The notes under the pieces are model-generated. The model did not search any database. It was given only the letters and a program-made list of their open reading frames with translations, and had not been told where the DNA came from. A stretch of DNA of 59,746 nucleotides from Alphaproteobacteria bacterium (GTDB lineage Bacteria > Pseudomonadota > Alphaproteobacteria > RF32 > CAG-239), in contig JAEEMQ010000002.1 in NCBI GenBank assembly GCA_016283295.1, positions 1 through 59,746 on the forward strand, given 5' to 3'. This document shows positions 52,276-59,491 of the stretch, in pieces (position 1 is the stretch's first letter; each line of letters opens with the position of its first letter). Made by a program: the position numbers and the translations under genes.

Positions 52276-52332
52276 TGTAACAAAAATGTTATACAATAAA
52301 GCTTGATTTCGGCACGAAAAATAGTGTATATT
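52276..52332 (+). promoter_or_regulatory. TGTAACA element plus putative promoter of the 52368 effector-family gene
   Basis: TGTAACAAAAATGTTATACA (52276-). -35 TTGATT at 52303, exactly 27 nt from the T of TGTAACA. 18-nt spacer, then TATATT (52327-52332). Confidence 0.5.
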
Positions 52333-52367
52333 AAAACATAGAGTATGTATGAACCAAAGGACTGATT

Positions 52368-54806
52368 ATGGCTGGCGAACGCTTAGTTGTTCCGGATTTT
52401 GACAATATCGGCGAGTTTAAAAAATGGGTCGGTAATTTGGACGAGCGCGCCATTCAAAAATGGACAGCTGCCGATTGGGTGGCATTTTATAAAAAAATAG
52501 AGCCGTTGAGTGCTGAATGGTTCAGCAGTCCGCACAAGATGATGACAACTTGTACGGAAGAATTTATTAAACTACACAGCAATTATCGTCTTGAACCAAA
52601 GCAGTTGGAATATATAAGAGAATTAGCACGTCAGGCCGGTAAAGAATTAGCCGAACAAAATGTGGATGCCGCTGAGTTGGCCATCAAAACAACAAATACC
52701 GATTTAATAAATCCGGCAAATCGCAATAACGCTGTCAGAAAAATGACTGAAAAAGTAGATAATATTGCGGCAGAAAGTACAAAATATGCGCCTGAACATC
52801 GTTTGCAAACAATGAGTATAATTGACGAGACTATGGGTAATACACAAGGTGTGGCGAATATGAAAGGGGAAAAAGGTTTTGCTTCCATTAGAGTGAATAC
52901 CGCATCTGCCGTCGATAATACCATCAACGTATCAGCACATGAGGCGGCTCATGTCCATTTTCAAACCGGAAATCCACTCCAGATGGAATTGTTGCAAAAG
53001 AAAATATTGGCTCATCCCGAATTGGGAGATGATTTTGCCGCATTGATGATGTATAACAATAAATTCTATTTGGATTCCAGAACCATAGATGATTGGTTTA
53101 CATATAAATCTATCGCTCCTCTGGATGAATGGGGTAAAAAATTCCGAGGGTACAGCCACCAACCGGTAGAGAAGTTCAGCGAAATATACGGTATTGAGGT
53201 GGAACGTGCTTATCGTCATGCCAGCGGACAGATTTCAGAGAGAACAGCCCTCAAAGTTTGCGGTTATATCGGGAAGACTCCGGAAGCCGTGCAATATACC
53301 TCCAAAGGAATTGAAATCACCTATCGGGCCGGGTTGGATGAAGACTTAAGCGGTAAAAAGCTTATGAAAGAGCTGAAAAGCAAGTTCGGCGGATCGATGG
53401 CGGATGAATTGGATGTTAAATTGCTTGATAAAGCCGGAAAAGATGTAAAAATTACGATTCCGCAAGACAGTAAATTCACTCAAAAATTTGAAAAATTTTT
53501 AGCATCACGGCCTGAATCTGAGGCGGTTGCGGACTTTATCGCCAAAAATCCGAGTTTTGCTCAATATAGTGATTCGGAAATAAAGTTAATGTTTCCCAAG
53601 TCGGAAATTACCGAGAAAGAAATATATTTGCTTCATAAAATGGAGCAACAGACGGGAAGTGCGGTAATAATTGAGGAAGCGGGTAAGAAAAACGTTTTTA
53701 CCACGGTTACCGTTCCGCGCGATAAAGAATTTTTTGCTAAGGTTGAAAAGGCAGGTAATACCTCAAAATTTAAGAAAGCTGCCCGGAAAATAGACAGGGC
53801 GATTGATAATACCATCGAAGATTGCGGCAAAGCGCTCAATAATTCTAAAGTCGGTAAGGCTTATGCTAAAGCAAAGCAAGCCGTAGCCAATTCAACGCCG
53901 GTGCAAAAAACCAAAGAGGCGGCGAAAAAGGCAAAAACCGCGGTGGTGCAAACCGCTAAAAAGGTCGGGCAAAAGGTGGCGCAATCGAAGGTCGGAACCG
54001 CCGTAAAACAAGCGGTAAACGGCACGGCGGCCCAAACCGCCAAAAAAGCGGTCGACAAGGCCGCCAAGAGTGCGGTAACGCAAGCTGCGAAAAAGACGGT
54101 AACCAAGGCCGTTACCAATACCGCGGTTAAGGCCGTGGGCAAGTCCGTATTGAAAAAAATTCCGCTTATCAGTATCGGTGCCGGTTTGATATTCGGGGCA
54201 CAGCGCGCCATGGCCGGAGATTTTGCCGGCGCCGCCGGTGAAGTTGCTTCCGGTGTATGCGGTACTTTTCCGGGAGTAGGGACAGCAGCCAGCGTGGCCA
54301 TAGATGCCGGACTTGCCGGTCGCGATATTTATAAAGAAGTCAAAAACGCCGACGATGCCACCAAACAGCAGGTTAAAAAGGATAGGGAAAACGCCAGAAA
54401 ATACGGCGAGAAAAAACAAAAACAGGTAGCCAGAGCCTCGGCAAAAGCTAAGTCCCCAACAACGCAAAAACAGGCAACCGCCGCCAAAATGAAAACCGAT
54501 GCCGCCAATGCCAATAAATATCAAAAGCAGATGGAAGCCATTATTAATAAGCTGAATAAGGCTAACGGCAAGGCTAAAGCCATGGATGCGGCCCACACCG
54601 CCGCCGCGCTGTATCAAAAATACGGTGATAATGCTTATGCGTTGTTGCAAGAGGCCGTACAAAGTCCAGGCTCGTATCAAAAGCTGGGTGACGGTAAACT
54701 GAAAACCTCACGCGATGTGATTCAGCACTTGTGCCAAATGCCGGATACCAAACAGAATCAGCAAATTGTACAGAGTATCGTGCAGAACCGTGCCAGAAGC
54801 AAGTAA
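52368..54806 (+). CDS. Shared-CTD family protein A: HExxH-containing N-region, K/A-rich amphipathic repeats, glycine-zipper hydrophobic segment, conserved C-terminal module
   Basis: 812 aa with no signal peptide. SAHEAAHVHF. AKKAKTAVVQTAKKVGQKVAQSKVG... repeats. IGAGLIFGAQRAMAGDFAGAAGEVASGVCGTFPGVGTAASVAIDAGLAG. C-terminus QMEAIINKLNKANGKAK...LKTSRDVIQHLCQ...NRARSK aligns with the three genes downstream. Confidence 0.8.
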   Translation: MAGERLVVPDFDNIGEFKKWVGNLDERAIQKWTAADWVAFYKKIEPLSAEWFSSPHKMMTTCTEEFIKLHSNYRLEPKQLEYIRELARQAGKELAEQNVDAAELAIKTTNTDLINPANRNNAVRKMTEKVDNIAAESTKYAPEHRLQTMSIIDETMGNTQGVANMKGEKGFASIRVNTASAVDNTINVSAHEAAHVHFQTGNPLQMELLQKKILAHPELGDDFAALMMYNNKFYLDSRTIDDWFTYKSIAPLDEWGKKFRGYSHQPVEKFSEIYGIEVERAYRHASGQISERTALKVCGYIGKTPEAVQYTSKGIEITYRAGLDEDLSGKKLMKELKSKFGGSMADELDVKLLDKAGKDVKITIPQDSKFTQKFEKFLASRPESEAVADFIAKNPSFAQYSDSEIKLMFPKSEITEKEIYLLHKMEQQTGSAVIIEEAGKKNVFTTVTVPRDKEFFAKVEKAGNTSKFKKAARKIDRAIDNTIEDCGKALNNSKVGKAYAKAKQAVANSTPVQKTKEAAKKAKTAVVQTAKKVGQKVAQSKVGTAVKQAVNGTAAQTAKKAVDKAAKSAVTQAAKKTVTKAVTNTAVKAVGKSVLKKIPLISIGAGLIFGAQRAMAGDFAGAAGEVASGVCGTFPGVGTAASVAIDAGLAGRDIYKEVKNADDATKQQVKKDRENARKYGEKKQKQVARASAKAKSPTTQKQATAAKMKTDAANANKYQKQMEAIINKLNKANGKAKAMDAAHTAAALYQKYGDNAYALLQEAVQSPGSYQKLGDGKLKTSRDVIQHLCQMPDTKQNQQIVQSIVQNRARSK

Positions 54807-57845: not shown

Positions 57846-59399
57846 TTAAGCCATACCGCCGCGGCCGCGTCTTTTGGTAGCGGCAATCGCCAGAATCTGC
57901 TGATTTTGCTCCTCGTTGTCGATTTGGCACAGCTGTTCCAGAACATCACGCGAGGAGGTGAGGCGCTTGCCGTTTTCGTTGCGCAAATCCAAACGTTGCG
58001 AAAATTGCGACGGCGACATCATTATCTTGGTCAAAACCTTGGAGGCGTCGGTGCCGTAGAGCTCGGCCAGGCGATCGATGGTTGCTTCGATATCAACCGG
58101 ATTTTTCTTGCTGACTTTGTTCAAGTTGTTCAGCATTGACTCCATTCTGGCCTTATCTTTATCCGAAATTTCGTCGGTGCGGACAACCTTTTTCTCGCTC
58201 GAAGCTTCGGCCTGTGCTTCTGCCTGCGCGGCCGGCTGCTCGGCTTGGATGGCGGAAGATTCACGCTGCTCGTTGGTGGCCGCCGTAACATAGAACATCG
58301 AAAAACGTCTTTCCTGACGGGAGGCTTCTTCTCCGGCATTTTCGCCGTCGATACGCATTACGGCCGGAGTAGCACTCGGAACATTGGCATTTTTAACGTA
58401 AGAATCCGCATATTGGATAACCTTATTATTTCTGCCCTGAGCGGTAAAGAGGTGATTTTCGGTTTTTTCCAAATCGTCGACGCGAGTACCCAGTTTTTCC
58501 CGCTCCCGGCTGACCATACGCGCCAAATCGGTGGTTGAGAGTTCGCGATATTGATCCAATTCATCGTTCATCTGTTTGGTCATCCAGCGATTCATATCGC
58601 CGGCTATGACGTTTGAATACAGAACTCGTGATGTTACAACCTCAAGATTGTTGCTGTTATTGGCCTGCAGAACATAATTTTTCAGATTACCGTTTTCATC
58701 ATAATTTACGGCAATAACCGTTTTGGCATGATAGCCGGAATCCGTGTGACTCGGTATACCGATGGTGGCTCCCGGGCCGACCTTGCCCTCGCTGATTAAA
58801 GTCCATAAATCGCCGCGCGCGGTATACCCCTCAAGAGCCGGGTCGTCCATAAAACCGTTGGCAAGGCGATAGTGCTTCGCTTCCGGATATTTTTGATAAG
58901 GCTGTACAAAGTTGTCGGCATCGTCAAAACCCATTTCCGCGGAAATTTTTGATTCCAAAGCCTTACTGCTGACGGCGCAACAGCTGGCCGTACGGCCGGA
59001 CAAGGTTTTGGTAACATATTGCGGAATGCGGGCATAACAACTGTCGGCAACGGCTTCTTTCATATCGGGATATCTTCTCATGATATCTGCACAGCCGTTC
59101 CAGGTTGCTTTGTTCATGGCTTTTTTGTTGCCGGTGCGGCTGCAGATTGATACGGATACATCGTAGGCTTTCAGGCCTTCGTTTAAGCATACATACTGAT
59201 ATTCTTGTTGGCGCATGGCACGATATTGTTCCAGCAGAGCTTCGCGGAACTCTTTGTCATTGGCATAATCTCCCGGATTAAGACGCGGGAAGTTGTCTTC
59301 AATTTCCCGTTTTCTTCTTGCTGCTACATCGTCGGTCAAATTACCGGCTTCGGCCGATTTTGTTGGTACAGTCTGCCTTCTTACCACTCTCTTTCCCAT
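57846..59399 (-). CDS. Shared-CTD family protein D: candidate papain-like Cys/His hydrolase head + conserved C-terminal module
   Basis: 517 aa with no signal peptide. GRTASCCAVSS and SHTDSGYHAKTVIAVNYDENGN suggest a Cys...His catalytic pair (NlpC/P60- or CHAP-like; inference only). CTD DKDKARMESMLNNLNKVSKK...LTSSRDVLEQLC...KRRGRGGMA. Confidence 0.8.
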   Translation of the reverse strand: MGKRVVRRQTVPTKSAEAGNLTDDVAARRKREIEDNFPRLNPGDYANDKEFREALLEQYRAMRQQEYQYVCLNEGLKAYDVSVSICSRTGNKKAMNKATWNGCADIMRRYPDMKEAVADSCYARIPQYVTKTLSGRTASCCAVSSKALESKISAEMGFDDADNFVQPYQKYPEAKHYRLANGFMDDPALEGYTARGDLWTLISEGKVGPGATIGIPSHTDSGYHAKTVIAVNYDENGNLKNYVLQANNSNNLEVVTSRVLYSNVIAGDMNRWMTKQMNDELDQYRELSTTDLARMVSREREKLGTRVDDLEKTENHLFTAQGRNNKVIQYADSYVKNANVPSATPAVMRIDGENAGEEASRQERRFSMFYVTAATNEQRESSAIQAEQPAAQAEAQAEASSEKKVVRTDEISDKDKARMESMLNNLNKVSKKNPVDIEATIDRLAELYGTDASKVLTKIMMSPSQFSQRLDLRNENGKRLTSSRDVLEQLCQIDNEEQNQQILAIAATKRRGRGGMA

Positions 59400-59435
59400 G
59401 GCCTTTCTCCTTAAATCAACACTTTATTTAGCTTT

Positions 59436-59491
59436 ATCATAGCATAAATCGTGACAAAAAACAACAGCAAAAGTGTTACAGTTGTGTTACA
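59436..59491 (-). promoter_or_regulatory. Tandem TGTAACA elements plus putative promoter of gene 57846-59399
   Basis: Minus strand reads TGTAACACAACTGTAACAC (59491 down to 59473). -35 TTGTTT (59464-59459), 27 nt spacing. 17-nt spacer, then TATGAT (59441-59436). Confidence 0.5.

Follow-up and report, generated by a model that had tools for sequence, protein, structure and literature searches.

What does a protein module do that ends four neighboring proteins with unrelated heads and no secretion signal? The four genes, here called A, B, C, and D, lie at one end of a 59,746-nucleotide stretch of DNA from an Alphaproteobacteria bacterium of the RF32 lineage (GenBank assembly GCA_016283295.1, contig JAEEMQ010000002.1, positions 1 to 59,746), which we refer to as the window. 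The original prediction, made from the letters of the sequence, proposed that they form a candidate effector family whose common C-terminal module serves for export or targeting. Our analysis supports one half of that proposal: the module is a genuine domain shared by unrelated heads. The other half, that it is the export signal, was weakened by the positions in which the module occurs, by its loss from related proteins, and by the presence of other tails. Our leading reading, which we offer tentatively, is that the module is an accessory, position-independent binding or docking domain on fast-evolving enzymes without signals, and that the basic C-terminal end is the likelier non-Sec export signal.

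The open reading frames (ORFs) of A to D were found where they had been predicted, each ending in a common module of about 95 residues. The genes and the module copies are listed below; HMM stands for hidden Markov model.

52368..54806, plus strand: gene A (812 residues), with a HEAAH motif at about residue 191, a Lys/Ala-rich helical region, a glycine zipper, and a diverged module.
54807..56510, minus strand: gene B (567 residues), with a GH24 domain, then an SGNH/GDSL domain, a P/Q/K linker, and the module.
56658..57689, minus strand: gene C (343 residues), with a GH24 domain, a K-rich and then P/A/Q linker, and the module.
57846..59399, minus strand: gene D (517 residues), with helical hairpins flanking a Cys-His-Asp core, a linker, and the module.
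54513..54803, plus strand: module copy of A (residues ~716-812, ending in NRARSK), from alignments and the HMM (E 1e-34).
54810..55121, minus strand: module copy of B (residues 464-567, ending in SKRRRSR), the copy used for the AlphaFold2 model.
56661..56975, minus strand: module copy of C (residues 239-343, ending in ARRRGREA).
57849..58166, minus strand: module copy of D (residues 412-517, ending in TKRRGRGGMA), from alignments and the HMM.

The last 100 or so residues of the four proteins align with 23 invariant columns, and the motifs originally described (KDxARMxSMLNNLNK, TIExLxAQYG, LDLRDxNGKLLTSSRQ, and an Arg-rich end) were all confirmed. The modules of B, C, and D are 55 to 68% identical to one another, and that of A is 34 to 36% identical to the other three, in agreement with its description as a more diverged copy. 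For B and C, the modules share 68% of their residues and 70.4% of their nucleotides (over 297 nt), which is less than the 75 to 80% DNA identity originally estimated. The ratio of nonsynonymous to synonymous substitution rates (dN/dS) was 0.18 for this pair and 0.18 to 0.28 for the paralogous modules, and synonymous sites were near saturation. These values indicate long-term purifying selection and not recent gene conversion. Among 13 homologues of the D type, the mean pairwise identity was 0.51 in the module, 0.55 in the catalytic core, and 0.32 in the linker.

As had been proposed along with the prediction, we searched a profile HMM of the four modules against protein databases and recorded the heads of the carriers. 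Among 1.84 billion (1.84e9) representatives, the profile found 51 proteins at E<=1e-3 and 23 at E<=1e-10. The module is therefore a real domain family, neither a chance resemblance nor low complexity. We count one of the 51 matches, the repeat protein P0043, as a false positive. Each cluster behind a match contains 1 to 7 sequences, the sole name given in any source is "hypothetical protein," and most carriers are dark proteins of bacteria not yet cultured. It was the exhaustive search of representatives that revealed the family; another homologue search with module profiles returned only three or four short fragments. The diverse module alignment (A3) was too variable for locus scans, and subsets of it were used instead.

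All traced carriers lie on contigs of uncultured gut or rumen (alpha)proteobacteria. The genome scan yielded three carrier loci, all in Proteobacteria or Alphaproteobacteria metagenome-assembled genomes (two of the three named ruminal), and the metagenome matches came from human-gut and other host-associated samples. In one locus (L006), a GapR-type gene adjoins a carrier; the GapR family is typical of Alphaproteobacteria. Another carrier contig (L011) contains a 210-residue Lys/Ala/Thr-rich ORF resembling histone H1, with AKKTAAKK repeats, that runs off the contig end (3665-4294, minus strand). Using tblastn, we found the module in none of 50,697 phage genomes and in none of 72,556 plasmids, and three pattern scans of 2.9 million IMG/VR viral contigs did not detect it.

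The carriers have heads of several types: GH24 lysozymes, GH24 joined to an SGNH esterase, the D-type Cys-His-Asp core, the A type with HEAAH and a glycine zipper, and a large HEQKH family with the signature "NIDFQVDT...HEQKHRDN...MHDEISA." Further carriers are a 1429-residue repeat protein with a glycine zipper and proteins without a recognizable enzyme. The HEQKH head has no sequence relatives in the PDB and is unrelated to the head of A by BLASTP.

The module was said to sit always at the extreme C terminus. This holds for the window and for the close relatives but not for the family: in about 20 of 50 representatives (~40%), it lies inside the protein, stands at the N terminus, or occurs twice. 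P0019 consists of two module copies and no enzyme, and in P0047, P0048, and P0050 two copies stand in tandem at the N terminus. Those of P0050 precede a region containing the catalytic motif of T4 lysozyme (12 of 23 residues identical), and the protein retains an Arg-rich C-terminal end (RRRNRRRSGPARA).

The module can also be missing altogether. A-type orthologues that have no module but keep the basic terminal end occur in L004 (79% identical over 744 residues) and L022, two of the loci related to the window. Likewise, the D-type paralogues P0063 and P0064 have no module and end in ...NIIATQRQYSR and ...NMTRQMGQQR; these ends resemble the ...NIATARRQQGR of the module-bearing P0062, a direct neighbor of P0064. 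The A-type gene of L004 (RUG13901; 6338-8632, minus strand) has a degenerate Lys/Asn-rich end in place of the module, and that of another related locus, L003 (MAG-R073; 8020-9406, minus strand), is split into pieces of 278 and 154 residues; either decay of the A-type gene or assembly error would account for the two cases.

We calculated the net charge of the last 20 residues throughout the family. The mean was +2.76, versus +1.06 in a crude background set of 147 ORFs (Mann-Whitney p 1.5e-6), so that the positively charged tails noticed in the window are indeed a feature of the family. Carriers in which the module is not terminal had a mean of +2.7. The basic end is a family trait independent of the module. 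In human-gut loci, a different conserved tail at the extreme C terminus, 90 to 110 residues downstream of the module, is common to carriers and to the module-less HExxH proteins next to them; the positions are as follows.

L013, 5429-10615: carriers and module-less HExxH neighbors with the alternative shared tail.
L015, 2530-6712: the same arrangement.
L017, 1701-5839: the same arrangement; L015 and L017 have one tail type.

The tail of L013 reads "MKxGHxRxxEMRxKLxxGHxE..", with "..T..RI(N/T)A..M" near its end, and that of L015/L017 reads "M(K)I(M/L)QLRGVE(R/K)..". The carriers of L013, L015, and L017 also have a common "YREWKNEDGSRVSEVQHRQLPDMTKDVIQKPTK" motif directly before the module.

The flexible position of the module, its loss from some proteins, the different tail of other lineages, and a basic end that does not depend on it argue that the module is not the export signal, or not alone. 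The case for a new delivery signal is thereby weakened: that the module is "the export signal" is one reading among several, and another has better support.

We then compared the module with known sequences and folds. The AlphaFold2 model of the B copy, based on a 10-row alignment, is all-helical (mean predicted local distance difference test score [pLDDT] 84.6, predicted template modeling score [pTM] 0.75), with five helices at residues 5-22, 30-54, 56-63, 76-84, and 89-100 and a short hairpin at residues 64-75. Neither Pfam, NCBIfam, PHROGs, nor PADLOC gave a significant match, and a sequence-profile search of the PDB returned nothing. Foldseek, which is weak on small helical bundles, gave a best E of 2.3 with TM<0.4 against the PDB (best 50 of the 55 matches at E<=10 listed) and a best E of 0.8 against the viral structure library BFVD. 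When 41 diverse modules were scanned singly against Pfam at E<=10, there was no supported family among the best 25 of 57 matches listed. Taken with its distribution, the module is an undescribed, lineage-restricted all-helical domain of about 85 to 95 residues, after which comes a short end that is first hydrophobic and then basic. The family is new, and no relative could be detected among known folds.

Several identities had been suggested for the module or suggested themselves from its motifs. A match to a known wall-binding or endolysin domain would have spoken against the original proposal. No such match was found: PG_binding_1, LysM, SH3b, SPOR, and phage endolysin cell-wall-binding domains were matched neither by sequence (Pfam, NCBIfam, PHROGs, PDB profile) nor by fold (nothing at E<0.8 with Foldseek in the PDB or BFVD). 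Homology to XVIPCD or to the C-terminal domain of type IX secretion system cargo, which the prediction itself could not claim, was not detected in Pfam, the PDB, or Foldseek. The type IX domain is a beta-sandwich of about 80 residues on Bacteroidota cargo with Sec signals, whereas the module is all-helical and its carriers are (alpha)proteobacterial and have no N-terminal signal. XVIPCD was rejected on account of the five-helix model and the Arg/Lys-rich tails (KRRRSR, RRRGREA, KRRGRGGMA, and NRARSK in the window), and there was none among the 50 PDB matches listed. BID families were matched by none of A to D in Pfam at E<=0.1 and were not among the 25 Pfam matches listed for the 41 modules, and no BID structure was among the 50 listed PDB matches of Foldseek, with its weakness on such bundles. 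The motif "NGxGKxID" could be read as dockerin-like or EF-hand, but the acidic loop positions are missing in the window copies and the helices of the model are long. A sub-threshold similarity ("LxxKYGDxAxxLL") to Pfam DAO_C (PF16901), the C-terminal domain of alpha-glycerophosphate oxidase, was seen in 9 of the 41 modules (best E 0.012); P0050 gave an E of 7.8e-6, still below the cut-off. Kinship with DAO_C was unsupported by PDB sequence searches.

The heads of the four proteins differ as originally described. The GH24 domains of B and C and the SGNH domain of B are above Pfam cut-offs, A has its HEAAH motif and zipper, and D has invariant Cys, His, and Asp residues.

54135-54320 (approximate), plus strand: glycine zipper of A (residues ~590-650; Kyte-Doolittle maximum 1.46 at residue 593).
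56067-56477, minus strand: GH24 lysozyme domain of B (residues 12-148; PF00959, E 5.4e-12, 46.6 bits, cut-off 22.3).
55317-55853, minus strand: SGNH/GDSL esterase domain of B (residues 220-398; PF00657, E 4.7e-11, 43.7 bits, cut-off 23.6).
57240-57653, minus strand: GH24 lysozyme domain of C (residues 13-150; PF00959, E 5.1e-15, 56.3 bits, cut-off 22.3).
58590-59069, minus strand: Cys-His-Asp core of D (residues ~111-270; C141, H224, and D234 invariant in 17 homologues).

The GH24 heads of B and C are 55% identical, and the esterase of B also exceeds the cut-off of PF13472 (33.7 versus 32.9 bits). A muramidase combined with an SGNH esterase, as in B, could strip the O-acetyl groups that shield peptidoglycan from lysozymes. 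No Pfam or NCBIfam model was above threshold for A or D, and the heads of both have no sequence relatives in the PDB. The AlphaFold2 model of D (pLDDT 80.6) gave its best Foldseek matches with the papain-fold protease IdeS/Mac-1 and the C39 domain of ComA, matches that are weak (E 0.2-0.8, prob 0.4-0.7). The spacing of Cys, His, and Asp in D fits that of a Tae4-type amidase; we rejected this assignment, as D has no Pfam match and no Tae4 was among the Foldseek matches listed. At least three heads had been expected to act on peptidoglycan. By their domains, this substrate class is demonstrated for B and C only; D is weakly papain-like, and the head of A is unassigned. None of the four proteins has an N-terminal hydrophobic segment (19-residue Kyte-Doolittle values <=0.24 for windows starting in the first 25 residues), which agrees with the predicted lack of a Sec signal.

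Over about 60 residues, the zipper of A shares 55 to 64% identity with proteins from T4-like cyanophages and from phages of Acidovorax, Xanthomonas, and Stenotrophomonas, annotated variously as "late control gene D," "peptidase," or "endolysin." The protein of Acidovorax phage ACP17 has 737 residues and is encoded about 0.7 kb from a baseplate-hub chaperone gene. A zipper stretch was also noted in the related locus L009 (6001-6210). We rejected a phage ancestry of A on this basis, the PHROG and phage tblastn matches being confined to the ~60 zipper residues.

Variable heads, a linker, a common noncatalytic module, and a basic tail make up an architecture of an already known kind. According to our tentative reading, all heads would be guided by the module to the same ligand or partner, such as a component of the target envelope or a docking protein. 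It would not itself be the export signal; the short basic end would be the better candidate for a non-Sec signal, because it persists when the module is missing or moved. Position independence (internal, N-terminal, and tandem copies) is typical of binding modules and argues for this reading, as does the strong association with cell-wall hydrolases (nine GH24 carriers: B, C, P0007, P0010, P0012, P0013, P0023, P0045, and P0053). Charge is not conserved in the module core, whose isoelectric point (pI) ranges from 4.4 to 10.2; this points to a specific partner rather than generic electrostatic binding. Binding by the module, the kind of ligand, and the export of the proteins are all inferred, export from the substrates of B and C.

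Two known kinds of accessory domain resemble this arrangement. The binding domains of endolysins and bacteriolysins (PG_binding_1 in KZ144-type lysins, SH3b in lysostaphin, and the C-terminal domain of the muramidase TtsA) are likewise noncatalytic, joined by linkers, placed at either end, sometimes in tandem, and reused on different catalytic domains. They differ in that they have no similarity to the module in sequence or fold, and known examples reach the wall by a signal peptide or a holin. The module has no phage context and is found also on proteins without a wall-degrading domain. The dockerins of cellulosomal enzymes are small C-terminal modules that follow a Pro/Thr/Gln-rich linker on many enzymes of rumen and gut organisms, a likeness that would fit docking to one common partner. 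Unlike dockerins, the module does not match Dockerin_1 and has long helices instead of a duplicated calcium-binding loop-helix; no cohesin-like partner was identified, and the carriers are Gram negative and have no signal peptides.

A number of points weigh against a binding or docking role. The module has no similarity to any known binding domain, and the spread of its core pI makes generic binding to anionic wall polymers unlikely. A role in target binding is hypothetical. The weakest of the N-terminal cases have modest domain E values (1e-5 to 1e-7), and the background for tail charge is a crude set of ORFs. Moreover, the module of the window and of all close relatives never departs from the C-terminal position, with the basic tail after it in every case, an arrangement to be expected of a bipartite signal.

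The site of the cluster bears on the alternatives. Its boundaries and the one internal signal are as follows.

51665..52255, minus strand: gene for a DUF308 (HdeD-like; PF03729) membrane protein, the left boundary, divergent from A.
59646..59746, plus strand: start of rpsL, the right boundary, read from the sequence and divergent from D.
57799..57823, minus strand: terminator-like GC-rich hairpin and T-run between D and C (9-pair stem with 7 GC pairs, a consensus match only).

The terminator-like hairpin after D suggests that D may be transcribed on its own. The neighbors of the site are rpsL, rpsG, and fusA on one side and the DUF308 gene, a haloacid dehalogenase (HAD)-like gene, era, rnc, and lepB on the other. 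A D-type gene adjoins rpsL in every related genome examined, and an ORF or called gene of the DUF308 type occupies the equivalent position in L003, L022, and L023. Related clusters occur at the same site in at least six other assemblies, with the following contents.

L003: D, C, B, and a broken A.
L004: D, a different GH24 protein, and A without the module.
L005: D, a GH24 protein, and a B-type protein.
L021: three D-type paralogues, then a 732-residue ORF cut by the contig end (probably A type).
L022 and L023: D, two GH24 proteins, and a short A-like protein without the module.
L018 to L020: two D-type genes, one without the module.

When the window is compared with L003, L004, and L022, identity is 92 to 99.6% for the flanking proteins but 45 to 69% (D), 37 to 57% (C), 47 to 79% (A), and 87% (B) for the cluster proteins. 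The cluster is thus an island of high variability within a conserved backbone, a pattern that conflict or effector loci would be expected to show. Phage genes and an integrase are absent from it, and no tRNA is adjacent. A position inside a prophage lysis cassette, which would also have spoken against the original proposal, was not found: the neighbors are those named above, with no phage genes (holin, spanin, or structural) among them, and the module was in no phage, plasmid, or viral set searched. Neither the cluster nor the syntenic loci contain immunity-like ORFs, and B, C, and D are separated by just 147 and 156 bp, too little to hold the ORF of an immunity protein. Secretion-system genes (virB/virD4 and others) were absent from the approximately 40 window ORFs scanned with Pfam or NCBIfam and from the called genes of the related loci examined. 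Full-text literature on RF32 Alphaproteobacteria yielded nothing on lifestyle or secretion systems.

In the main rival explanation, module and basic tail together form a bipartite translocation signal that a dedicated exporter, be it a type IV coupling protein or some other, would recognize so as to deliver variable effectors into other cells. We consider this rather unlikely, although much of the evidence is compatible with it: a helical module of about 100 residues with a hairpin between helices and an Arg-rich tail after it, alphaproteobacterial carriers, unrelated heads without Sec signals, significantly basic C termini, and a hypervariable locus. BID domains, which mark VirB/VirD4 type IV secretion substrates of Alphaproteobacteria (Bartonella Beps, toxins, and relaxases), are likewise helical and measure about 100 residues; they are paired with a tail of positive charge, are found on toxins, and may lie internally or in tandem (PMC6509941). 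The module resembles them in size, helical make-up, and lineage, in its unrelated catalytic heads and the basic tail measured above, and in its internal or repeated copies. It differs in lacking a Pfam BID match or a listed Foldseek match, in the absence of a type IV secretion or relaxase context, and in its heads, which are wall hydrolases and peptidase-like proteins rather than FIC domains or relaxases. The other precedent is XVIPCD, found on the effectors of bacteria-killing type IV systems in Xanthomonadales, Burkholderiales, and Neisseriales. It too is a C-terminal domain of 100 to 120 residues behind varied antibacterial heads, including peptidoglycan hydrolases without Sec signals. However, XVIPCD consists of two antiparallel helices on a three-stranded beta sheet (aa-bbb), with conserved N-terminal motifs and a Gln-rich tail, and binds the all-alpha domain of VirD4 (PMC8740702), whereas the module is all-helical with an Arg-rich tail, has no adjacent immunity genes, and belongs to another lineage. 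The missing virB/virD4 genes (an orphan PilT/GspE-like ATPase is the sole secretion-type gene seen), the lack of immunity-like ORFs, the module-less orthologues and paralogues, and the N-terminal copies also speak against a bipartite signal. A more specific version, in which module and tail are a new bipartite signal of unrelated fold, functionally analogous to BID or XVIPCD, that delivers a hypervariable, immunity-less arsenal of wall-degrading enzymes and proteases to nonkin targets such as Gram-positive neighbors or protists, appears unlikely to us. For type I secretion, an RTX-type substrate (marked by Gly/Asp-rich nonapeptide repeats, an acidic protein, and adjacent transporter genes) was rejected: there was no detected repeat family, the pI of A, B, and C is 9.5 to 9.9, and no ATP-binding cassette or membrane fusion protein genes are nearby. 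This test covers the RTX type; a non-RTX type I substrate remains possible.

The endolysin-type GH24 lysozymes without signal peptides could instead belong to a domesticated lysis or release cassette of the type 10 secretion kind, in which lysozymes, a peptidase, and a membrane protein (the A zipper or DUF308) would open the wall for cargo without signals. The recurrence of D, lysozymes, and A beside DUF308 at one conserved chromosomal site fits this, as do other families of signal-less repeat proteins encoded in the genome. Yet a housekeeping system should be conserved, and divergence is much greater in these genes than in the flanking ones, with copy number and domains varying as well. We detected neither a holin or spanin family nor signs that the module descends from phages, and the module occurs on many nonwall heads and on proteins without an enzyme. 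Such a cassette, in which the module would tether the enzymes to that membrane partner or to the producer's own wall, is improbable. Least probable, in our view, is a regulatory or sensor domain that holds the heads inactive in the cytoplasm or senses a trigger such as a phage protein. Variable heads joined to a conserved noncatalytic domain are also an architecture of defense systems, and the island lies two genes from the HAD-like gene, which matches a phage-defense candidate. But A to D match no PADLOC model, cytoplasmic lysozymes would need a pore to reach peptidoglycan, the HAD-like gene is conserved like a housekeeping gene, and sensing would hardly account for proteins that consist of two module copies alone. 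We keep to the tentative reading of the module as a binding or docking domain, with the basic end as the likelier export signal.

The remaining genes of the window provide the setting of the cluster. The HAD-like hydrolase (PF12710; 50755-51651, plus strand) matches the PADLOC phage-defense candidate PDC-S34 with an E of 1e-103 and, unlike the cluster, is 95 to 99.6% conserved between related genomes. The approximately 40 scanned ORFs are housekeeping, lipopolysaccharide, or rhamnose genes or members of paralogous families without assignment. The orphan ATPase of the PilT/GspE family (PF00437; 319 residues; 17576-18535, minus strand) is far below every NCBIfam equivalog cut-off. It adjoins a 215-residue protein with a weak FxLYD-domain match (16839-17486, minus strand), and the neighboring ORFs that were scanned include no further gene for a pilus or for secretion. 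A 1446-residue AsmA-family protein (PF05170; 11513-15853, plus strand) and a dTDP-rhamnose/glycosyltransferase block at 20.4-28.5 kb represent ordinary envelope biogenesis and show that the organism is diderm.

Six tandem paralogous ORFs at 3349-8929 (plus strand; 330, 360, 339, 172, 211, and 445 residues) have Cys-containing repeats of about 22 residues that resemble leucine-rich repeats (LTSLEGAPQEVGGDFxCxxNx), with weak NCBIfam similarity to internalin InlJ. They share an N-terminal "FEQDGKxYNLYDLPDGFVIKGD" and a C-terminal "...SAYKIRQKK...AGYAAFKKKxxEERE." No signal peptide was obvious by eye, and Pfam gave nothing beyond one weak sub-threshold match to DUF4893. These ORFs are a second signal-less family with a common terminal element in this genome. 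Upstream of them lie two Asn/Gln/Ser/Thr-rich low-complexity proteins without a family match (54-866 and 1091-2140, plus strand), one of which is Gly/Ala-rich near its C terminus. This pair is followed by two small paralogous membrane proteins with a common "GxPLFLRYVLKKKWFEC" (2267-2587 and 2604-2960, plus strand).

Should the module serve for recognition or targeting, its profile would offer a means of cataloging all effectors of this uncultured alphaproteobacterial lineage of gut and rumen, a set with at least six head types, most of them without known relatives. If so, it would point to how Gram-negative bacteria move wall-degrading enzymes without obvious signals out of the cytoplasm, and, should module and tail be a bipartite signal after all, to a new effector-recognition system. 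The heads, with the muramidase and SGNH esterase of B, may be of interest to those seeking lytic enzymes. Whatever its function, a clean, well-folded new family in a hypervariable island is a good target for structural and interaction studies.

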